Assembly (NCBI RefSeq): GCF_054482525.1
Contig: NZ_CM137006.1
Length of the DNA stretch: 64,000 nucleotides
Reading direction: 5' to 3' (one strand)
Shown here: piece after piece, positions 1 through 12,305 of the stretch
Position numbering within the stretch: the first letter of the stretch is position 1
Layout of the letters: each line of letters starts with the position of its first letter
Program-made: the position numbers and the translations under genes
Notes under the pieces: model-generated
Told to the model about the DNA's origin: nothing
Databases searched by the model: none
The model's input: the letters and a program-made list of their open reading frames with translations, nothing else

Positions 1-464
1 GGGTAGACCTGATCACCGCGCCAGCCCGCAAAGTGGTGGAGATCCGCAAAACCACCATCGGCTGGGTGAGCCAGTTTCTGCGCGTCATCCCGCGTATTTC
101 GGCACTGGAAGTGGTGATGCAGCCTCTGCTCGATACCGGCGTACCGCGTGAAGCCTGCGCCGCTAAAGCCGCGCGTCTGCTCACCCGCCTGAACGTGCCT
201 GAACGCCTGTGGCACCTGGCACCATCGACCTTCTCCGGCGGCGAACAGCAGCGCGTCAACATCGCCCGTGGCTTTATCGTCGACTATCCGATTCTGCTGC
301 TCGACGAACCTACCGCCTCGCTGGACGCTAAAAACAGCGCCGCCGTAGTGGAACTGATCCGCGAAGCCAAAGCCCGCGGCGCGGCCATCGTCGGTATCTT
401 CCATGACGAAGCCGTACGCAATGACGTCGCCGACCGCCTGCACCCGATGGGAGCCTCTTCATGA
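1..464 (+). CDS. phnL: Phosphonate C-P lyase system ATP-binding protein PhnL, 3' part (5' end lies outside window)
   Basis: Open frame from window edge; ABC signature LSGGEQQR and Walker B LLLDEP; stop overlaps phnM start (ATGA); synteny with phnMNOP. Confidence 0.85.
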
Positions 465-1597
465 TTATCAATAACGTCAAACTGGTGCTGGAAAATGAAG
501 TGGTGCACGGTTCACTGGAAGTACAGGATGGCGAAATTCGGGCCTTTGCCGAAAGCCAGAGCCGCCAGCCGGAAGCGATGGACGGCGAAGGTGGCTGGCT
601 ACTGCCCGGACTGATTGAGCTGCATACCGACAACCTCGATAAATTCTTCACCCCGCGCCCGAAAGTCGACTGGCCCGCCCATTCGGCGATGAGCAGCCAC
701 GACGCGCTGATGGTGGCAAGCGGCATCACCACCGTACTGGACGCCGTGGCGATTGGTGATGTGCGCGACGGCGGCGATCGGCTGGAGAATCTGGAGAAGA
801 TGATCAACGCCATCGAAGAGACGCAGAAACGCGGCGTCAACCGCGCCGAGCACCGCCTGCACCTGCGCTGCGAACTGCCGCACCACACCACGTTGCCGCT
901 GTTTGAAAAACTGGTGCAGCGCGAACCGGTGACGCTGGTATCGCTGATGGACCACTCGCCAGGCCAGCGCCAGTTCGCCAATCGCGAGAAGTATCGCGAA
1001 TATTATCAGGGCAAATATTCCCTCACCGATGCGCAGATGCAGCAGTACGAAGAAGAGCAATTGGCGCTCGCCGCACGCTGGTCGCAGCCAAATCGCGAAA
1101 CCATCGCCGCAATGTGCCGCGCGCGACACATTGCCCTCGCCAGCCACGATGACGCCACGCACGCCCACGTTGCCGAATCTCACCAGCTTGGCAGCGTGAT
1201 CGCCGAATTTCCCACCACGTTCGAAGCGGCAGAAGCCTCGCGCAAGCATGGCATGAACGTGCTGATGGGCGCGCCGAATATCGTGCGCGGCGGTTCGCAC
1301 TCCGGCAACGTGGCGGCCAGTGAACTGGCGCAGCTTGGCCTGCTGGATATCCTCTCTTCCGACTACTACCCCGCCAGCCTGCTCGATGCGGCATTTCGCG
1401 TCGCCGATGACGAGAGCAACCGCTTTACGCTGCCGCAGGCGGTGAAGCTGGTGACTAAAAATCCGGCGCAGGCGCTTAATCTTCAGGATCGCGGAGTGAT
1501 TGGCGAGGGCAAACGCGCCGACCTGGTGCTGGCGCATCGCAAGGGCAACCACATTCATATCGACCACGTCTGGCGTCAGGGTAAAAGGGTGTTCTGA
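461..1597 (+). CDS. phnM: PhnM, amidohydrolase-family C-P lyase pathway enzyme
   Basis: 378-aa ORF, length and operon position match PhnM; translationally coupled to phnL and phnN. Confidence 0.9.
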
Positions 1598-2154
1598 TGA
1601 CGGGAAAACTGATTTGGTTAATGGGGGCCTCTGGCTCCGGAAAAGACAGTCTGTTGACGGAACTTCGCCAGCGGGAACAAACTCAGCTACTGGTAGCGCA
1701 TCGCTACATCACGCGCGCCGCCAGCGCCGGAAGTGAAAACCATATCGCCCTGAGCGAGCAGGAGTTTTTTACCCGCGCGGGGCAGAACCTTCTGGCCTTA
1801 AGCTGGCACGCTAACGGTCTGTATTATGGCGTCGGCGTCGAGATTGACCTCTGGCTGCACGCCGGATTCGACGTGCTGGTCAACGGCTCACGCGCGCATT
1901 TGCCGCAGGCGCGGGCGCGCTATCAATCGGCGCTGCTGCCCATTTGCTTACAGGTTTCGCCGGAGATCCTGCGCCAGCGCCTGGAAAACCGTGGTCGTGA
2001 AAACGCCAGTGAAATTAACGCCCGGCTGGCGCGCGCCGCCCGCTATACTCCTCAGGATTGCCATACGCTCAATAATGACGGCAGCCTGCGCCAGTCGGTC
2101 GACACGCTGCTGACGCTGATTCATCAGAAGGAGAAACACCATGCCTGCTTGTGA
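1597..2154 (+). CDS. phnN: PhnN, ribose 1,5-bisphosphate phosphokinase
   Basis: 185-aa ORF with P-loop GASGSGKDS; operon position. Confidence 0.9.
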
Positions 2155-2575
2155 GCTTCGCCCGGCCACGCAGTACGATACCGACGCAGTGTACGCGCTG
2201 ATTTGTGAGCTAAAACAGGCGGAGTTTGACCACCACGCGTTTCGCGTGGGCTTTAACGCCAACCTGCGCGACCCGAACATGCGCTACCATCTGGCGCTGC
2301 TGGATGGCGAAGTTGTCGGCATGATCGGCCTGCATTTGCAGTTTCATCTGCATCATGTCAACTGGATCGGCGAAATTCAGGAACTGGTGGTGATGCCGCA
2401 GGCGCGCGGTCTGAATGTCGGCAGTAAATTACTGGCATGGGCAGAAGAAGAAGCCCGCCAGGCCGGGGCCGAAATGACCGAGCTTTCCACCAACGTGAAG
2501 CGCCACGACGCGCACCGTTTCTATCTGCGCGAAGGCTACGAGCAGAGCCACTTCCGCTTCACCAAGGCGCTGTAA
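2141..2575 (+). CDS. phnO: PhnO, GNAT-family aminoalkylphosphonate N-acetyltransferase
   Basis: 144-aa ORF, overlaps phnN end; operon position. Confidence 0.88.
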
Positions 2576-2576
2576 C

Positions 2577-3335
2577 ATGAGCCTGACCCTCACACTTACT
2601 GGCACTGGCGGCGCACAGGGCGTTCCGGCATGGGGCTGCGAGTGCGTGGCCTGCGCCAGAGCGCGGCGCTCACCGCAGTATCGCCGCCAGCCATGCAGCG
2701 GCGTCGTGAAGTTTAACGACGCGATCACCCTGATCGACGCCGGGCTGCACGATCTCGCCGATCGCTGGTCGCCCGGATCGTTCCAGCAGTTTTTGCTGAC
2801 GCACTACCATATGGATCACGTGCAGGGGCTGTTTCCGCTGCGCTGGGGTGTGGGCGATTCGATCCCGATCTACGGCCCGCCGGATGAACAGGGCTGCGAC
2901 GATCTGTTTAAACATCCGGGCCTGCTTGATTTCAGCCACACGATGGAACCGTTTGTGGTGTTTGATTTACAGGGGTTACAGGTCACGCCCCTGCCGCTCA
3001 ACCACTCAAAACTGACCTTCGGTTATCTGCTGGAAACGGCACACAGCCGGGTGGCGTGGCTGTCTGACACCGCTGGCTTGCCGGAAAAAACGCTGAAATT
3101 TTTACGCAATAATCAGCCGCAGGTAATGGTGATTGATTGCAGCCACCCGCCGCGCGAGGATGCACCGCGTAATCACTGTGATTTAAATACCGTGCTTGCG
3201 CTGAATCAGGTTATCCGCTCGCCACGGGTGATTCTGACCCATATCAGCCACCAGTTTGATGCGTGGCTGATGGAAAACGCACTGCCGTCGGGGTTTGAGG
3301 CGGGGTTTGATGGGATGGAGATTGGGGTGGCGTGA
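2577..3335 (+). CDS. phnP: PhnP, metallo-beta-lactamase-fold phosphodiesterase
   Basis: 252-aa ORF with HxHxDH-type motif (THYHMDH); last gene of phn operon. Confidence 0.9.
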
Positions 3336-3350
3336 TGGGAGGGAATGTGC

Positions 3351-3477
3351 GCGCTGGCCCCCTCACCCTAACCCTCTCCCCAGAGGGGCGAGGGGACCGA
3401 TTGTGCTCGATATTGAATATTGCGCTGGTTTTCTCCCTCGCCCCATTGGGGAGAGGGCCGGGGTGAGGGGCGATGCC
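3351..3477. repeat. Pair of GC-rich boxC-like imperfect palindromic repeats in inverted orientation
   Basis: CCCCTCACCCTAACCCTCTCCCCAGAGGGGCGAGGGGA and its near reverse complement TCCCTCGCCCCATTGGGGAGAGGGCCGGGGTGAGGGG, separated by about 35 bp, in the phnP-yjdP intergenic region. Confidence 0.5.
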
Positions 3478-3493
3478 TGCTCCATACCCAACA

Positions 3494-3823
3494 TCAACGC
3501 CCATACTCATCTTCCATTCTCCGCTCTTCATCTTCTAGCTGCCGACGCTCCTGATCCAGCTGGCGCTGGCGATCGTCCAGCTGCCTGCGGCGATCTTCAA
3601 ACTGGCGGCGGCGATCGTCATATTGTCTGCGCCGATCGTCGTTCACTTCACGCTGCCAGCCGTCGTCGCGCGAATCTTCATAGTCTCGCCCACGGTCAGG
3701 GTTATAAGCGTCGTTAATCGCCTGCTGAATATTGCCAATGGTGTCGTCGATAATATCGGCCTGGGCCGGAACGGTGGACAGCGTGAGCAGGGTGAATAAA
3801 AGAAATAGCGGAAAGCGTTTCAT
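3494..3823 (-). CDS. yjdP: YjdP, small secreted protein with charged RRRQ/DD repeats
   Basis: 109-aa ORF with N-terminal signal peptide (MKRFPLFLLFTLLTLSTVPAQA) and repeated DRRRQ-type motifs. Confidence 0.8.
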   Translation of the reverse strand: MKRFPLFLLFTLLTLSTVPAQADIIDDTIGNIQQAINDAYNPDRGRDYEDSRDDGWQREVNDDRRRQYDDRRRQFEDRRRQLDDRQRQLDQERRQLEDEERRMEDEYGR

Positions 3824-3891
3824 TAGCCAACCTCAAAAAGAAACTCTATCCACATTAGTCATTACTCATCCATGCAAGTAGTGGATGAATC

Positions 3892-4092
3892 TCAATTTCT
3901 CCGCTGCTCTATTGCCGTAATCGCCTCCACGCGTTGTTGATGACGACCGCCTTCGTACTGCGCGCCCAGCCACGCATCCACAATCATTTTTGCCAGTTCG
4001 AGGCCAACCACTCGTGAACCAAAAGCCAGTGCAACTTCACTGGCGTAATGCGGATAATCAGTACGCTCTGACGACCTGGTTTCTTTATCAAT
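3892..4092 (-). pseudogene. rpiB: rpiB remnant (ribose-5-phosphate isomerase B), 3' portion only, with internal deletion
   Basis: Translation contains SSERTDYPHYAS...FGSRVVGLELAKMIVDAWLGAQYEGGRHQQRVEAITAIEQRRN, matching the RpiB C-terminus as recalled; the catalytic-Cys GTG-loop segment and the N-terminus are absent; upstream part of the ORF is not RpiB-like. Confidence 0.6.
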
Positions 4093-4241
4093 CCCCTCAC
4101 TCATTGACCATGAATAAAAGGCTGGCACAGCAACGCAGAATCCTGCGGTGCCAGCGACATGACCGCCCATTGCTCCGGTACGTTTTTTAATAAAAAACAC
4201 CGGTTGCATTGATTAATTGTGCTCAGGGTAATGACTCCAAC

Positions 4242-4745
4242 TTATTGATAGTGTTTTATGTTCAGATAATGCCCGATGACTTTGTCATGCAGCTCCACCG
4301 ATTTTGAGAACGACAGCGACTTCCGTCCCAGCCGTGCCAGGTGCTGCCTCAGATTCAGGTTATGCCGCTCAATTCGCTGCGTATATCGCTTGCTGATTAC
4401 GTGCAGCTTTCCCTTCAGGCGGGATTCATACAGCGGCCAGCCATCCGTCATCCATATCACCACGTCAAAGGGTGACAGCAGGCTCATAAGACGCCCCAGC
4501 GTCGCCATAGTGCGTTCACCGAATACGTGCGCAACAACCGTCTTCCGGAGACTGTCATACGCGTAAAACAGCCAGCGCTGGCGCGATTTAGCCCCGACAT
4601 AGCCCCACTGTTCGTCCATTTCCGCGCAGACGATGACGTCACTGCCCGGCTGTATGCGCGAGGTTACCGACTGCGGCCTGAGTTTTTTAAGTGACGTAAA
4701 ATCGTGTTGAGGCCAACGCCCATAATGCGGGCAGTTGCCCGGCAT
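4242..4745 (-). CDS. insB: IS1 InsB (transposase catalytic part, normally expressed as InsAB' by -1 frameshift)
   Basis: 167-aa ORF overlapping insA 3' end in the -1 frame; canonical IS1 organisation. Confidence 0.9.
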
Positions 4746-4939
4746 CCAACGCCATTCATGGCCATATCAATGATTTTCTGGTGCGTACCGGGTTGAGAAG
4801 CGGTGTAAGTGAACTGCAGTTGCCATGTTTTACGGCAGTGAGAGCAGAGATAGCGCTGATGTCCGGCGGTGCTTTTGCCGTTACGCACCACCCCGTCAGT
4901 AGCTGAACAGGAGGGACAGCTGATAGAAACAGAAGCCAC
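4664..4939 (-). CDS. insA: IS1 InsA
   Basis: 91-aa [46 protein letters not shown], zinc-finger plus HTH, canonical IS1 InsA. Confidence 0.92.
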
Positions 4940-5226
4940 TGGAGCACCTCAAAAACACCATCATACACTAAATCAGTAAGTTGGCAGCATCACCTGTGCT
5001 CAGTATTTGCCGAAGTACAATATATATAATAAATATATAAAACACCTCATATTATTTACAGAGATAATAAATTCGCGTACTTTTCCCTCTTCAGCACAAA
5101 TGCCTAATAAAGTGGCGCGTTCAGCTCACACTTCTACTTATTAAAGTCGCAATTTCCCAATTATGATAACGCCAGCTTTAAATGACGTATTTTGCATGGA
5201 TTACATATTTACGACATAAATGATAA

Positions 5227-7224
5227 ATGGAGATTTATATGAATAACTCTCGGTTATTCCGTTTGAGCAGGATTGTTATTGCGTTAACTGCCGCCAGCGG
5301 CATGATGGTAAATACCGCTTACGCAACAGATGAAGCGAAAGCCGCCACTCAATATACCCAACAGATTAATCAGAATTACGCCAAATCATTACCTTTTAGC
5401 GATCGTCAAGATTTTGACGATGCCCAGCGTGGATTTATCGCTCCGCTGCTGGATGAAGGTATTCTGCGTGATGCTAACGGCAAAGTTTACTACCGCGCAG
5501 ACGATTACAAATTTGATATTAATGCCGCTGCGCCGGAAACCGTAAACCCCAGCCTGTGGCGTCAGTCGCAAATCAACGGTATTTCTGGCCTGTTCAAAGT
5601 CACCGATAAAATGTATCAGGTGCGCGGCCAGGATATCTCTAACATTACGTTCGTTGAGGGCGAGAAAGGCATTATTGTTATCGACCCGCTGGTGACGCCG
5701 CCTGCCGCAAAAGCCGCACTTGATCTTTACTTCCAGCATCGTCCGCAAAAACCGATTGTTGCTGTGATTTACACCCACAGCCACGCCGACCATTATGGCG
5801 GTGTGAAAGGCATTATCTCTGAAGCGGATGTTAAATCCGGCAAAGTGCAGGTGATCGCTCCGGCAGGCTTTATGGACGAAGCCATCAGCGAAAACGTGCT
5901 GGCGGGTAACATCATGAGCCGCCGTGCGCTCTACTCTTACGGTCTGTTACTGCCGCACAACGCGCAAGGCAACGTGGGCAACGGCCTGGGCGTGACGCTG
6001 GCAACCGGCGACCCGAGCATTATTGCACCGACTAAAACTATCGTCAGAACTGGCGAGAAGATGATTATCGACGGCCTGGAGTTTGACTTCCTGATGACTC
6101 CGGGTAGCGAAGCGCCAGCCGAAATGCACTTCTATATTCCGGCCCTGAAAGCCCTGTGTACCGCCGAGAACGCCACGCATACCCTGCACAACTTCTACAC
6201 TCTGCGCGGCGCGAAAACCCGCGATACCAGCAAGTGGACCGAGTACCTGAACGAAACGCTGGATATGTGGGGTAACGACGCGGAAGTACTGTTTATGCCG
6301 CACACCTGGCCGGTCTGGGGCAATAAGCATATCAATGATTATATTGGTAAATATCGCGATACTATCAAGTACATTCACGACCAGACCCTGCACCTGGCGA
6401 ACCAGGGCTACACCATGAATGAAATCGGCGACATGATTAAGCTGCCGCCTGCGCTTGCCAATAACTGGGCCAGCCGCGGCTATTACGGTTCTGTCAGCCA
6501 CAACGCCCGCGCGGTGTATAACTTCTATCTTGGCTATTACGACGGTAACCCGGCTAACCTGCATCCATATGGTCAGGTGGAGATGGGTAAACGTTACGTG
6601 CAAGCTCTGGGCGGTTCTGCCCGCGTCATCAACCTGGCGAAAGAAGCGAACAAGCAAGGTGATTATCGCTGGTCGGCAGAACTGCTGAAACAGGTGATTG
6701 CCGCCAACCCTGGTGACCAGGTCGCGAAGAATCTGCAAGCGAATAACTTTGAACAGCTGGGCTATCAGGCCGAGTCCGCCACCTGGCGCGGTTTCTACCT
6801 GACCGGCGCGAAAGAGCTGCGCGAAGGGGTGCATAAATTCAGCCACGGCACCACCGGTTCCCCGGACACCATTCGCGGAATGTCGGTCGAAATGCTGTTC
6901 GACTTTATGTCCGTTCGCCTCGATAGTGCGAAAGCCGCGGGTAAAAATATCAGCCTGAACTTCAATATGAGCAACGGCGATAACCTCAACCTGACGCTGA
7001 ACGATAGCGTGCTTAACTACCGTAAAACGCTGCAACCTGAAGCCAACGCCTCTTTCTACATCAGCCGTGAAGATCTTCACGCCGTGCTGACCGGACAAGC
7101 CAAAATGGCGGATCTGGTAAAAGCGAAGAAAGCCAAAATTATTGGCAATGGCGCGAAACTGGAAGAAATTATTGCCTGTCTGGATAATTTCGATTTGTGG
7201 GTGAATATCGTAACCCCAAATTAA
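5227..7224 (+). CDS. yjcS: YjcS, MBL-fold alkyl/aryl-sulfatase family protein (BDS1/SdsA1-like), secreted
   Basis: 665-aa ORF with signal peptide and metallo-beta-lactamase motif [10 protein letters not shown]; start may be a few codons downstream. Confidence 0.85.
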
Positions 7225-7239
7225 TGCCACTCACTTTTG

Positions 7240-7270
7240 GGGGCCCTTAAGCCCCCAAAAGCATTTATTT
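7240..7270 (+). terminator. Rho-independent terminator downstream of yjcS
   Basis: Hairpin TTTTGGGGGC-CCTTAA-GCCCCCAAAA followed by T-rich tract. Confidence 0.6.
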
Positions 7271-7432
7271 AAAAAATATATACAGCAAATTAATACATAA
7301 AATATATAAGTTATGAATGCGGTGGCTGAATAAAGCTATTTTTATTCATCGAGAAAATAGCCATACTGACGCCTTCAATGGATATTGATATTCACTACAG
7401 ATATTGTTCGCAGCAGACAGGATGTATTTAAT

Positions 7433-7708
7433 ATGCCAACAGTTCTCTCTCGCATGGCGATGCAACTCAAAAAAACAGCCTGGATAATTCCCGTCTTCAT
7501 GGTTTCGGGATGCTCATTATCTCCGGCAATCCCGGTGATCGGCGCTTATTATCCCAGCTGGTTTTTCTGCGCCATTGCCAGCCTTATTTTGACGCTCATC
7601 ACGAGGCGAATTATTCAGCGGGCAAATATCAATCTGGCATTTGTCGGAATTATTTATACCGCCCTTTTTGCTCTCTACGCCATGCTGCTCTGGCTGGCAT
7701 TTTTCTAA
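7433..7708 (+). CDS. ytcA: YtcA, small lipoprotein/membrane protein preceding mdtNOP
   Basis: 91-aa protein MPTVLSRMAMQLKK... with lipobox-like VSGC and two hydrophobic segments; position upstream of mdtN. Confidence 0.75.
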   Translation: MPTVLSRMAMQLKKTAWIIPVFMVSGCSLSPAIPVIGAYYPSWFFCAIASLILTLITRRIIQRANINLAFVGIIYTALFALYAMLLWLAFF

Positions 7709-7726
7709 TCTATTTGAGACGCGCTC

Positions 7727-8758
7727 ATGGAAAGTACGCCGAAAAAAGCTCCTCGCAGTAAATTCCCTGCTCTGTTAGTGGTTGCGTTGGCGCTGGTTGC
7801 CCTTGTTTTCGTTATCTGGCGCGTAGACAGTGCGCCATCAACTAATGACGCCTACGCGTCAGCAGATACCATTGATGTGGTGCCGGAAGTCAGCGGTCGC
7901 ATTGTAGAACTGGCGGTCACCGACAACCAGGCGGTGAAACAGGGTGATTTGCTATTCCGCATCGACCCACGCCCATACGAAGCCAATCTGGCGAAAGCCG
8001 AAGCCTCCCTCGCGGCGCTGGATAAGCAAATTATGCTCACCCAACGTAGCGTTGACGCGCAACAGTTTGGTGCCGACTCGGTTAATGCCACGGTAGAAAA
8101 AGCCCGTGCCGCCGCGAAACAGGCCACAGATACATTACGCCGCACCGAGCCATTACTGAAAGAAGGTTTTGTCTCAGCGGAAGACGTTGACCGTGCAAGA
8201 ACTGCGCAGCGCGCCGCAGAAGCCGATCTTAATGCCGTATTGTTGCAGGCGCAGTCAGCCGCCAGTGCCGTCAGCGGCGTCGATGCGCTGGTCGCCCAAC
8301 GTGCGGCGGTCGAAGCGGATATTGCCCTGACCAAACTGCATCTGGAAATGGCGACCGTTCGCGCGCCGTTTGATGGCCGGGTCATTTCCCTCAAAACCTC
8401 CGTCGGGCAATTTGCTTCTGCCATGCGCCCTATTTTTACCCTAATCGACACTCGTCACTGGTACGTGATCGCCAACTTCCGCGAAACCGATCTGAAAAAT
8501 ATTCGCTCAGGTACACCCGCAACGATTCGCCTGATGAGCGACAGCGGCAAAACCTTCGAGGGTAAAGTGGATTCGATTGGCTACGGCGTGCTACCGGATG
8601 ACGGCGGTCTGGTGCTGGGCGGCCTGCCGAAAGTGTCTCGTTCTATTAACTGGGTCCGCGTTGCCCAGCGTTTTCCGGTCAAAATCATGGTTGATAAACC
8701 TGACCCGGAAATGTTCCGCATCGGCGCTTCGGCAGTCGCTAATCTTGAGCCGCAATAA
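7727..8758 (+). CDS. mdtN: MdtN, membrane-fusion (HlyD-family) efflux component
   Basis: 343-aa ORF, N-terminal TM anchor, coiled-coil rich; synteny. Confidence 0.85.
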   Translation: MESTPKKAPRSKFPALLVVALALVALVFVIWRVDSAPSTNDAYASADTIDVVPEVSGRIVELAVTDNQAVKQGDLLFRIDPRPYEANLAKAEASLAALDKQIMLTQRSVDAQQFGADSVNATVEKARAAAKQATDTLRRTEPLLKEGFVSAEDVDRARTAQRAAEADLNAVLLQAQSAASAVSGVDALVAQRAAVEADIALTKLHLEMATVRAPFDGRVISLKTSVGQFASAMRPIFTLIDTRHWYVIANFRETDLKNIRSGTPATIRLMSDSGKTFEGKVDSIGYGVLPDDGGLVLGGLPKVSRSINWVRVAQRFPVKIMVDKPDPEMFRIGASAVANLEPQ

Positions 8759-10809
8759 TGAGCGCGCTCAACTCCCTGCCATTACCGGTGGTCAGGCTGC
8801 TGGCGTTCTTTCATGAAGAGTTAAGCGAGCGGCGACCAGGCCGCGTGCCGCAGACTATGCAACTCTGGGTAGGCTGCCTGCTGGTGATTCTGATCTCGAT
8901 GACTTTTGAGATCCCTTTTGTGGCGTTATCGCTGGCAGTGCTGTTTTACGGTATTCAGTCGAACGCGTTTTACACCAAATTTGTCGCGATCTTGTTTGTG
9001 GTCGCCACGATGCTGGAGATCGGCAGCCTGTTTTTGATCTACAAATGGTCATATGGCGAACCGTTGATCCGATTGATCATCGCCGGACCGATCCTGATGG
9101 GCTGCATGTTTTTGATGCGCACCCATCGGCTGGGGCTGGTCTTTTTCGCCGTCGCCATTGTCGCTATTTACGGGCAAACCTTCCCCGCCATGCTCGACTA
9201 TCCGGAAGTGGTCGTGCGCTTAACCCTGTGGTGTATCGTTGTCGGCCTCTACCCGACGTTATTGATGACGTTAATCGGCGTGCTGTGGTTTCCCAGCCGC
9301 GCTATCACGCAGATGCATCAGGCGCTTAATGATCGGCTTGATGATGCCATTAGTCACCTGACGGACAGCCTCGCACCGCTACCCGAAACGCGGATTGAAA
9401 GAGAGGCGCTGGCGCTGCAAAAACTCAATGTCTTTTGCCTCGCGGACGATGCCAACTGGCGAACTCAGAGCGCATGGTGGCAAAGCTGCGTGGCAACGGT
9501 AACCTACATTTACTCGACGCTGAATCGCTACGATCCCACCTCTTTTGCTGATTCTCAGGCAATTATTGAATTTCGGCAAAAATTAGCCTCAGAAATCAAC
9601 AAACTGCAGCATGCCATTGCCGAAGGTCAGTGCTGGCAAAGCGACTGGCGGATCACTGAAAGTGAAGCGATGGCGGCACGGGAATGTAACCTGGAGAATA
9701 TCTGCCAGACATTGTTGCAACTGGGTCAGATGGACCCGAATACGCCGCCAACGCCCGCCGCCAAACCGCCATCAATGGTCGCCGATGCTTTTACCAATCC
9801 AGACTATATGCGCTACGCGGTAAAAACGCTGCTCGCCTGTTTGATCTGTTACACCTTCTACAGCGGCGTGGACTGGGAAGGCATTCACACCTGTATGCTG
9901 ACCTGCGTGATCGTCGCTAACCCGAATGTTGGTTCGTCGTATCAGAAAATGGCGCTGCGTTTTGGCGGTGCCTTCTGCGGTGCAATTCTGGCGCTGTTAT
10001 TCACGTTACTGGTCATGCCCTGGCTGGACAATATTGTCGAATTGCTATTTGTGCTGGCACCGATTTTTCTGTTGGGCGCATGGATTGCCACCAGCTCTGA
10101 ACGCTCTTCTTATATCGGCACACAGATGGTGGTCACCTTCGCGCTCGCCACGCTCGAAAACGTTTTTGGCCCGGTGTACGACCTGGTGGAAATTCGCGAT
10201 CGCGCCCTGGGTATCATCATTGGTACCGTGGTGTCCGCGGTGATTTACACCTTTGTCTGGCCTGAAAGTGAAGCGCGCACACTGCCGCAAAAACTGGCTG
10301 GCGCGCTGGGTATGTTGAGTAAAGTAATGCGGATCCCACGCCAGCAGGAAGTCACGGCTCTGCGCACTTATCTGCAAATTCGTATAGGTCTGCATGCGGC
10401 GTTTAATGCCTGTGAAGAGATGTGCCAACGCGTGGCGCTGGAGCGTCAACTGGACAGCGAAGAACGCGCTTTACTGATTGAACGTTCGCAAACGGTTATT
10501 CGTCAGGGCCGCGATATTCTTCACGCCTGGGATGCAACCTGGAACTCGGCGCAGGCGCTGGATAACGCACTACAGCCGGACAGAGCAGGTCAGTTTGCCG
10601 ACGCACTGGAGAAATACGCTGCCGGTCTGGCAACCGCACTCAGCCGTTCTCCTCAAATAACGCTTGAAGAAACACCCGCCTCGCAGGCCATCCTGCCGAC
10701 CTTATTAAAACAGGAACAACACGTCTGCCAGCTTTTCGCCCGCTTGCCAGACTGGACAGCCCCGGCATTAACGCCCGCCAAGGAACAGGTACAAGGAGCC
10801 ACGCAATGA
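8758..10809 (+). CDS. mdtO: MdtO, inner-membrane efflux transporter (aromatic acid exporter family)
   Basis: 683-aa polytopic membrane ORF, start overlaps mdtN stop. Confidence 0.85.
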   Translation: MSALNSLPLPVVRLLAFFHEELSERRPGRVPQTMQLWVGCLLVILISMTFEIPFVALSLAVLFYGIQSNAFYTKFVAILFVVATMLEIGSLFLIYKWSYGEPLIRLIIAGPILMGCMFLMRTHRLGLVFFAVAIVAIYGQTFPAMLDYPEVVVRLTLWCIVVGLYPTLLMTLIGVLWFPSRAITQMHQALNDRLDDAISHLTDSLAPLPETRIEREALALQKLNVFCLADDANWRTQSAWWQSCVATVTYIYSTLNRYDPTSFADSQAIIEFRQKLASEINKLQHAIAEGQCWQSDWRITESEAMAARECNLENICQTLLQLGQMDPNTPPTPAAKPPSMVADAFTNPDYMRYAVKTLLACLICYTFYSGVDWEGIHTCMLTCVIVANPNVGSSYQKMALRFGGAFCGAILALLFTLLVMPWLDNIVELLFVLAPIFLLGAWIATSSERSSYIGTQMVVTFALATLENVFGPVYDLVEIRDRALGIIIGTVVSAVIYTFVWPESEARTLPQKLAGALGMLSKVMRIPRQQEVTALRTYLQIRIGLHAAFNACEEMCQRVALERQLDSEERALLIERSQTVIRQGRDILHAWDATWNSAQALDNALQPDRAGQFADALEKYAAGLATALSRSPQITLEETPASQAILPTLLKQEQHVCQLFARLPDWTAPALTPAKEQVQGATQ

Positions 10810-12305
10810 TCAATCGTCAACTTTCACGTCTGCTGTTGTGCAGCATTCTCGGCAGCACGACGCTGATTTCCGGCTGTGCCCTGGTACGTAAGGATTCTGC
10901 ACCTCATCAACAGCTCAAACCGGAACAAATCAAACTGGCCGATGATATTCATCTTGCCAGCTCCGGCTGGCCGCAGGCGCAGTGGTGGAAACAACTCAAT
11001 GACCCGCAGCTGGATGCGCTGATCCAACGGACGCTAAGTGGTTCACACACCCTCGCCGAAGCGAAACTGCGGGAAGAAAAAGCGCAGTCGCAGGCCGATT
11101 TGTTAGATGCCGGTTCACAGTTGCAGGTGGCCGCGTTAGGGATGCTCAACCGACAACGTGTCTCGGCGAACGGCTTTTTAAGCCCTTATGCGATGGATGC
11201 GCCAGCACTGGGTATGGACGGGCCGTACTATACGGAAGCCACAGTCGGTTTGTTTGCCGGACTGGATCTTGATTTGTGGGGTGTGCATCGCTCAGCGGTT
11301 GCCGCCGCCATTGGCGCGCATAATGCCGCGCTGGCAGAAACCGCAGCAGTAGAGCTATCGCTGACCACGGGCGTAGCGCAGCTTTATTACAGTATGCAGG
11401 CCAGCTATCAGATGCTCGATCTGTTAGAACAAACACGCGATGTGATTGATTACGCGGTGAAAGCGCACCAGAGTAAAGTGGCGCACGGTCTGGAAGCGCA
11501 CCAGAGTAAAGTGGCGCACGGTCTGGAAGCGCAAGTGCCTTTCCACGGCGCGCGGGCACAGATTCTGGCGGTCGATAAACAAATTGCTGCCGTTAAAGGG
11601 CAAATCACCGAAACGCGAGAATCTCTGCGTGCATTGATTGGCGCGGGAGCCAGCGATATGCCGGAGATCAAACCGGTGGCATTACCGCAAGTCCAGACCG
11701 GCATTCCGGCGACACTCTCTTATGAGTTGCTCGCCAGACGCCCGGATCTGCAAGCCATGCGCTGGTATGTTCAGGCGTCATTAGATCAGGTGGATTCCGC
11801 GCGGGCGCTGTTCTATCCGAGCTTTGATATCAAAGCGTTTTTCGGCCTGGATTCTATCCACCTGGATACCTTATTCAAAAAAACCAGTCGCCAGTTCAAC
11901 TTTATCCCAGGTCTGAAATTGCCGCTGTTTGACGGTGGACGGTTGAATGCCAATCTCGAAGGCACTCGCGCCGCCAGCAACATGATGATTGAACGTTACA
12001 ACCAGTCAGTGCTGAATGCGGTGCGCGACGTTGCCGTCAACGGCACGCGTCTGCAAACGCTCAACGACGAGCGAGAGATGCAGGCTGAACGCGTGGAAGC
12101 AACGCGCTTCACCCAGCGCGCTGCCGAGGCCGCCTATCAACGCGGCTTAACCAGCCGCTTACAGGCCACCGAAGCCCGGTTGCCAGTGCTTGCCGAGGAG
12201 ATGTCATTACTGATGCTGGACAGCCGCCGGGTGATCCAAAGCATTCAGTTGATGAAATCGCTGGGCGGCGGGTATCAGGCAAGTCCCGTCGTCGAGAAAA
12301 AATAA
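10806..12305 (+). CDS. mdtP: MdtP, outer-membrane efflux factor (TolC/OprM family lipoprotein); 499 aa here, with an 11-aa in-frame tandem duplication
   Basis: Lipoprotein signal with LISGC lipobox; 499-aa ORF versus 488 aa recalled for K-12; contains duplicated HQSKVAHGLEA. Confidence 0.85.
   Translation: MINRQLSRLLLCSILGSTTLISGCALVRKDSAPHQQLKPEQIKLADDIHLASSGWPQAQWWKQLNDPQLDALIQRTLSGSHTLAEAKLREEKAQSQADLLDAGSQLQVAALGMLNRQRVSANGFLSPYAMDAPALGMDGPYYTEATVGLFAGLDLDLWGVHRSAVAAAIGAHNAALAETAAVELSLTTGVAQLYYSMQASYQMLDLLEQTRDVIDYAVKAHQSKVAHGLEAHQSKVAHGLEAQVPFHGARAQILAVDKQIAAVKGQITETRESLRALIGAGASDMPEIKPVALPQVQTGIPATLSYELLARRPDLQAMRWYVQASLDQVDSARALFYPSFDIKAFFGLDSIHLDTLFKKTSRQFNFIPGLKLPLFDGGRLNANLEGTRAASNMMIERYNQSVLNAVRDVAVNGTRLQTLNDEREMQAERVEATRFTQRAAEAAYQRGLTSRLQATEARLPVLAEEMSLLMLDSRRVIQSIQLMKSLGGGYQASPVVEKK
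11463..11528 (+). repeat. Perfect 33-bp direct tandem duplication inside mdtP
   Basis: GCGCACCAGAGTAAAGTGGCGCACGGTCTGGAA occurs twice back to back (11463-11495 and 11496-11528). Confidence 0.9.

Follow-up and report, generated by a model that had tools for sequence, protein, structure and literature searches.

An als-negative scar allele with an rpiB relic and an IS1 insertion between yjdP and yjcS in Escherichia coli

The interval between yjdP and yjcS, which holds the D-allose locus in E. coli K-12, was analyzed in a 64,000-nucleotide stretch of DNA (contig NZ_CM137006.1 of NCBI RefSeq assembly GCF_054482525.1), hereafter called the window. The window starts with phnM-N-O-P on the + strand, followed by a GC-rich palindromic repeat, yjdP and an rpiB remnant on the − strand, an intact copy of the insertion sequence IS1, and yjcS on the + strand (Table 1). 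When the K-12 rpiB-alsK DNA and the Als proteins were used as queries in blastn and tblastn searches, no als gene was found in the 64-kb window, so that the transporter, the epimerase, the kinase, and the regulator of the D-allose regulon (alsR, alsBACEK) are all absent from it. The only matches in these searches were the rpiB remnant at 3892-4099 and a weak generic similarity between ATP-binding cassette (ABC) ATPases and AlsA.

For comparison with K-12, we used a locus record in which yjdP, rpiB, alsR, alsBACEK, and yjcS are all annotated, and aligned it with a 634-bp "empty" junction corresponding to the window sequence minus IS1 and one of its target duplicates. Relative to this record, the window is missing ~6.56 kb (4391-10947 of the K-12 locus record), comprising rpiB nt 1-83 and its promoter, alsR, alsBACE, and nearly all of alsK, and, separately, 159 bp within rpiB. 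The sequence left behind, referred to below as the scar, contains in colinear order a piece of rpiB (nt 313-450), the site of the 159-bp deletion, a second piece of rpiB (nt 84-163), the stop codon and hairpin of alsK, and a spacer of ~77 bp, and all of these were found in the window. From position 5015 onward, the region upstream of yjcS shows 92% identity to the K-12 alsK-yjcS spacer, and all the alleles that we compared converge near AATATATATAATAA, ~215 bp upstream of yjcS.

Table 1. Features of the yjdP-yjcS interval, with coordinates in the window.
Feature	Coordinates	Strand	Evidence and remarks
yjdP	3494-3823	-	Open reading frame; named yjdP in the identical PCN033 annotation; DDRRRQL repeat protein; left neighbour of the scar
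rpiB remnant, 3' piece (K-12 rpiB nt 313-450, L105-N149 and stop)	3892-4029	-	99.3% identity to K-12
105-codon open reading frame	3892-4209	-	Open reading frame; PGAP annotation ("RpiB/LacA/LacB family sugar-phosphate isomerase"); read as a pseudogene relic
One remaining copy of CTGGCT (AGCCAG on the + strand), internal deletion junction	4024-4029	-	Comparison with K-12 rpiB
rpiB remnant, internal piece (K-12 rpiB nt ~84-153, ~I31-A51)	4030-4099	-	Alignments
Main ~6.56-kb deletion junction (rpiB 5' end through alsK)	4100-4107	.	The rpiB match stops at 4099, and the match to the end of alsK begins at 4108
Remnant of alsK stop codon and hairpin just downstream of alsK	4108-4159	+	79% identity to K-12 (10948-10999 of the locus record), E 1e-7
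Scar-specific spacer, left part	4160-4226	.	AT-rich, hairpin-containing, IS1 target; continues at 5004-5014, total ~77 bp
Left target-site duplicate, TGTGCTCAG, 9 bp	4218-4226	.	Direct repeat
IS1, intact, 768 bp	4227-4994	-	Terminal inverted repeats, open frames; transposase reads leftward, toward the rpiB remnant
Right target-site duplicate, TGTGCTCAG, 9 bp	4995-5003	.	Direct repeat
Rest of scar-specific spacer (5004-5014), then yjcS upstream region common to all alleles	5004-5238	+	Alignment
yjcS (alkyl sulfatase)	5239-7224	+	Open reading frame and annotation; right neighbour; start codon 244 bp from the IS1 end

An earlier note, made from the letters of this stretch alone, had described the locus as lacking the allose cluster and its regulator, with a 3' fragment of rpiB of roughly 200 bp followed by about 135 bp of sequence unrelated to RpiB. 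The absence of the cluster was borne out by the searches above and by the alignments to K-12 and to als-negative genomes, which confirmed the loss and showed that the junction is shared by other als-negative genomes, such as PCN033, where the 634 bp are 100% identical. The description of the rpiB fragment was right as to its place, but the fragment is not contiguous, as nt 313-450 are joined to nt 84-163. Similarly, the following sequence is indeed not rpiB, and 4093-4226 are not native 5' sequence of that gene, but 4108-4159 is homologous to the stop codon and hairpin at the end of alsK.

The two pieces of rpiB meet at a short repeat. In K-12 rpiB, CTGGCT is found at nt 154-159 and again at nt 313-318; in the scar, only one copy is left and the intervening 159 nt are gone. 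This internal deletion is in frame and removes RpiB residues 52-104, and it could have arisen between the CTGGCT direct repeats by slippage or by illegitimate recombination. On the yjdP side, 3830-4029 match the yjdP-rpiB spacer and rpiB nt 313-450 of K-12 at 99%, and 4020-4099 match rpiB nt 84-163 at 90% over 80 nt, with the substitutions W36R, G34E, and Q49E in the internal piece. A foreign donor was considered for the internal piece, as a first BLAST comparison gave 85% identity and suggested a deep or foreign origin. Base-by-base comparison showed ~5 differences in 70 nt, whereas the divergence of this strain from K-12 in the phn genes already amounts to ~4.7%, and this candidate was dropped.

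The hairpin that lies just downstream of alsK is retained in the scar with a predicted folding energy of −22.1 kcal/mol, compared with −21.1 kcal/mol in K-12, and carries a paired T>C / A>G change. It is followed by the scar-specific spacer, which was absent from all the als+ alleles and from the other Escherichia species that were aligned. An 87-nt segment containing this spacer is present in single copy, and only in 1570 scar-bearing E. coli genomes. Since no second copy was found in any E. coli genome, the spacer is neither a repeat nor a miniature mobile element. We also observed that the hairpin at 4120-4137 contains TGGCAC, with a GC dinucleotide one base off the canonical sigma-54 −24/−12 spacing, and that IS1 in the window now separates this hairpin from yjcS.

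The scar is a frequent allele in E. coli. In a set of 5426 complete genomes, with a junction counted if it was colinear at no less than 80% coverage, the 634-bp IS1-free junction was found in 1568 (~29%). The K-12 alsR-alsK block was present in 3370 genomes (~62%), in every case with at least 97.4% identity, and the remaining genomes mostly carried something else, either another sugar island or larger deletions. Five diverse copies of the junction showed no indels and differed by at most ~3%. The 87-nt segment occurs as two sequence types, one represented by 471 genomes at 99% identity or more and the other by 1097 genomes at 95-99%, and this two-type pattern of a single-copy segment fits a single and old origin of the scar allele. 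The 20-mer that spans the deletion junction (CATTGACCATGAATAAAAGG) had no match among the GTDB species representatives, a weak negative given that this was exact matching against one genome per species.

Such a distribution could also be read the other way round, with the als-negative state as the ancestral one and the als cluster inserted in other strains. Outside E. coli, with loci retrieved via YjcS, Kluyvera and Salmonella enterica subsp. arizonae have the order phnP-(yjdP)-yjcS with no als genes between, and the locus is multi-allelic, as a different sugar island occupies it in O157 and in Escherichia sp. E1V33. The scar, however, keeps parts of both ends of the als region, namely two fragments of rpiB and the stop codon and hairpin of alsK, in the correct order and orientation. 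Only a loss from an als+ state can explain this, and the scar is therefore a deletion product and not an ancestral empty site. Moreover, E. whittamii and another divergent Escherichia carry als at this site. A metagenome-assembled genome of Pluralibacter has an independent rpiB 3' remnant adjoining yjdP (residues 64-148, 88% amino acid identity; 942-1196 of its locus) with no als genes; next come an autotransporter gene and part of the lyxose-type island. This remnant speaks for an old presence with repeated later losses. An ancestral als-negative state is thus very improbable, and the scar would have resulted from an old, single-origin loss of ~6.56 kb from an als+ arrangement.

The second component of the locus is the IS1 copy, the only one in the 64-kb window. 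It has imperfect terminal inverted repeats, with ends GGTAATGACTCCAACTTATTGAT... and GGTGATGCTGCCAACTTACTGAT..., and its frames are open, insA at 4664-4939 (91 aa) and insB' at 4242-4745 (167 aa), both on the − strand, with an A6C frameshift motif (AAAAAAC, 4682-4688, − strand) from which −1 frameshifting is predicted. It lies 18 bp upstream of the ATG of the 105-codon open reading frame. Over its 768 bp, the element was 100% identical to the listed plasmid copies annotated as IS1 family transposase, and 4970 among the best 5000 plasmid records matched it at 99% or more. The earlier note had taken it to be a simple insertion with a perfect 9-bp target duplication, and had proposed that the deletion of als predates it or is unrelated to it. 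Both proposals agree with our data: TGTGCTCAG is found on both sides of IS1, PCN033 and SCU-102 have the empty site with a single TGTGCTCAG and no IS1, between flanks that match the window at 100%, and the IS1-free junction is carried by the 1568 genomes described above, the nearest relatives included. A 240-bp probe across the left IS1 junction did not detect IS1 at exactly this site in any complete genome.

IS1 has nonetheless reached the same spacer elsewhere. In three scar-bearing genomes (EF5-18-41, 2021CK-01361, and MS 115-1), independent insertions of IS1 were found 44-46 bp to the right of the window site. Two of them, EF5-18-41 and 2021CK-01361, were inspected, and MS 115-1 is known from the junction match. 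The IS1 of EF5-18-41 has its own 9-bp duplication. That of 2021CK-01361 (1667-2489 of its locus), 46 bp to the right of the window site, directly adjoins mdtN, with the genes from yjcS to ytcA missing, a loss that points to a deletion adjacent to IS1 on the background of the scar.

The position of IS1 within the scar, together with the removal of yjcS-ytcA next to IS1 at this same spot in 2021CK-01361, raises the question of whether IS1 itself caused the loss of als, either by an IS1-mediated adjacent deletion or by recombination between two IS1 copies. We give this explanation virtually no credence, as the same scar, free of IS1, is present in 1568 genomes, among them the closest relatives of the window, the 9-bp duplication is intact, and the als deletion junction is 120 bp away from the IS1 end. 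The perfect duplication is the mark of simple transposition and not of a deletion adjacent to IS1. The window IS1 is thus a private and recent simple transposition into an AT-rich spacer that has been hit repeatedly by IS1, and it is unrelated to the als loss. In this second event, a standard IS1 would very recently have transposed into the scar-specific spacer and generated the 9-bp duplication.

An error of assembly, in which the als region was collapsed or IS1 was misplaced, could mimic part of this picture, since short-read assemblies are often broken or misjoined at multicopy repeats such as IS1. Nevertheless, three closed genomes from this clone have an empty site that matches exactly, which together with the perfect target duplication is the pattern of a true insertion, and the als-negative junction consists of continuous, unique sequence. 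In addition, alsBACEK was reported to be absent genome-wide in PCN033 (PMC4578781). We therefore regard an assembly artefact as highly unlikely.

The absence of als at this locus has precedents. Apart from PCN033, als was described as absent in enteroaggregative E. coli 042, for which a D-allose defect was confirmed on Biolog plates (PMC2808357), and in E. coli W (PMC3032704), and alsE is reported for 45% of a set of 1324 E. coli genomes (PMC11580995). Lack of als is thus an already known and common state in E. coli, and the only new item in the window is the position of one IS1 copy. On the basis of the K-12 pathway and of the published phenotypes of other als-negative strains, the strain is predicted not to grow on D-allose and to rely on rpiA for ribose-5-phosphate isomerase.

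Taken together, these results very probably reflect two independent events, an old als-negative scar allele and an unrelated, very recent simple transposition of IS1 into it. Several points weigh against this interpretation. At the junction of the large deletion, where inspection of the alignment revealed no convincing microhomology, 8-14 nt can be assigned to neither side, and one deletion event is therefore indistinguishable from several. A source for the ~77-bp spacer was not found in K-12, other als+ alleles, O157, other Escherichia species, Kluyvera, Salmonella arizonae, or the rest of the window. For the assembly across IS1 the support is indirect, and the allose-negative phenotype of this strain is a prediction. 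Finally, the 105-codon open reading frame is uninterrupted in each of the five diverse alleles, and the differences found among them, 6 nonsynonymous and 5 synonymous, do not prove neutrality.

The last points bear on whether the retained sequence has a function, for instance as a truncated RpiB-like peptide or in the regulation of yjdP or yjcS, in which case IS1 would have a regulatory effect. The 105-codon frame is called as a coding sequence by PGAP in every record inspected, the hairpin is held at equal predicted stability with a compensatory pair, and the rpiB 3' end beside yjdP is kept independently in Pluralibacter. Furthermore, the K-12 alsK-yjcS spacer was reported to bind RpoN holoenzyme and NtrC (PMC8743547). 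Against a function, the frame lacks the N-terminal and central parts of the RpiB fold, residues 1-30 and 52-104 being absent. With Pfam, the LacAB_rpiB domain (PF02502) was recovered at model positions 102-138 (E 6e-9) and weakly at 27-49 (E 1.7), and the full-length domain of ~138 positions was not found, as positions 1-26 and 50-101 are absent. The first 39 codons span the spacer and the alsK hairpin, thus crossing a strong hairpin with a T-run behind it on that strand, and the frame has undergone radical changes, W36R among them. The ratio of 6 nonsynonymous to 5 synonymous differences is indistinguishable from neutrality, with too few sites to decide on selection.

In E. coli RpiB, the catalytic and substrate-binding residues are Asp9, His10, Cys66, Thr68, His99, and Asn100. 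All six fall within the lost segments, the catalytic core being taken out by the 159-bp deletion, and the remnant cannot be an isomerase. The 105-codon frame is thus best treated as a catalytically dead pseudogene relic, and a function for this frame or for the retained hairpin and spacer has only a small chance of being real. In a wider form of the same idea, an old single-origin scar coexists across phylogroups with the als+ allele and the lyxose-type island, and its open frame, hairpin, and spacer persist through function. This is improbable too; if true, the retained parts could carry regulatory signals of yjdP or yjcS, or encode a small RpiB-derived peptide, and IS1 would rewire the expression of the neighbouring genes.

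The preferred interpretation, an old scar with a recent and unrelated IS1, has consequences for annotation and strain typing. The 105-aa "RpiB/LacA/LacB family sugar-phosphate isomerase" annotated as a coding sequence in ~1570 RefSeq genomes is better regarded as the relic of a gene, a pseudogene. Within the PCN033/SCU-102 clone, the private IS1 can serve as a strain marker and, judging from the sister cases, it may seed future adjacent deletions of yjcS. At the level of the species, the yjdP-yjcS interval is a multi-allelic slot, with als, the scar, and other islands or larger deletions as its contents in ~62%, ~29%, and the rest of the genomes, respectively.

Other strains show further forms of this interval. 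In O157:H7 strain 4276 (1-5931) and in Escherichia sp. E1V33 (2950-6293), both the als cluster and the scar are lacking, and the island beside yjcS encodes an ABC transporter, a D-lyxose/D-mannose isomerase, a ketose-bisphosphate aldolase, a kinase, and a response regulator. In Escherichia sp. MOD1-EC7003 (389-7852), yjcS is preceded by an adiY-like gene, adiC, eptA, basR, basS, and proP, so that the stretch from proP to yjcS contains neither the phn operon nor yjdP, rpiB, or als. From these sequences, the interval looks like a slot of repeated gain and loss of sugar islands.

Two more strains were noted for damage at or near the locus. In MSB1_9D (5000-6035), a copy of IS903B directly precedes yjcS and borders yjdN at its opposite end; phn, yjdP, and als are deleted, and yjcS and mdtN are annotated with internal stops. 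In the als+ avian pathogenic E. coli (APEC) O1:K1:H7 strain E16002 (8389-14872), alsB is annotated as frameshifted, alsC as having an internal stop, and phnP as frameshifted, so that in some lineages point mutation is another route by which the allose pathway decays.

The surroundings of yjdP were also inspected. In two Kluyvera loci (~9740-9790), a conserved "GGAGGAATCTCAATT" is located upstream of yjdP and corresponds to the final codons and the stop of rpiB. Signals upstream of yjdP may overlap with the 3' end of rpiB. Between phnP and yjdP, the window contains a cluster of palindromic GC-rich repeats (~3336-3493), which may resemble the "box C"-type intergenic repeats of E. coli. Not all strains have this cluster to the same extent: the gap measures 158 bp in the window, 146 bp in K-12, and, in other strains, ~27-42 bp. 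When 3300-5400 were scanned against Rfam, nothing was found in the scar, and the palindromic repeat (3330-3500) gave just chance microRNA-like matches. A scan for consensus promoters and terminators near the scar gave nothing that exceeded the expectation from shuffled sequence; one match was the hairpin created at the CTGGCT junction, to which we attach no interpretation.

Compared with the D-allose locus of K-12, the window has the same flanking genes in the same orientation, with 99% identity over the 3' 138 bp of rpiB and 92% upstream of yjcS, but it is without the ~6.56 kb and the 159 bp, and it has the ~77-bp spacer, which is absent from K-12. As a member of the IS1 family, the inserted element shares length, inverted repeats, two frames, A6C motif, and 9-bp duplication, with no structural difference. 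The IS1 copies of EF5-18-41, 2021CK-01361, and MS 115-1 have the same orientation as that of the window and are located in the same AT-rich spacer, but they belong to a different variant (96.4%) and occupy a different position. The closest counterpart is the PCN033 allele, also found in SCU-102, in the O111/O103 lineages, and in others, which carries the same 105-codon rpiB relic (WP_001183282.1). The window is essentially identical to SCU-102, 19KM1776, and PCN033 over 40000-60000, and its flanks match those of PCN033 at 100% over 1-4226 and with a single mismatch over 4995-9240 (4246 bp). What distinguishes the window from PCN033, SCU-102, and all the other complete genomes searched is the 768-bp IS1 and its 9-bp duplication at 4227-5003.

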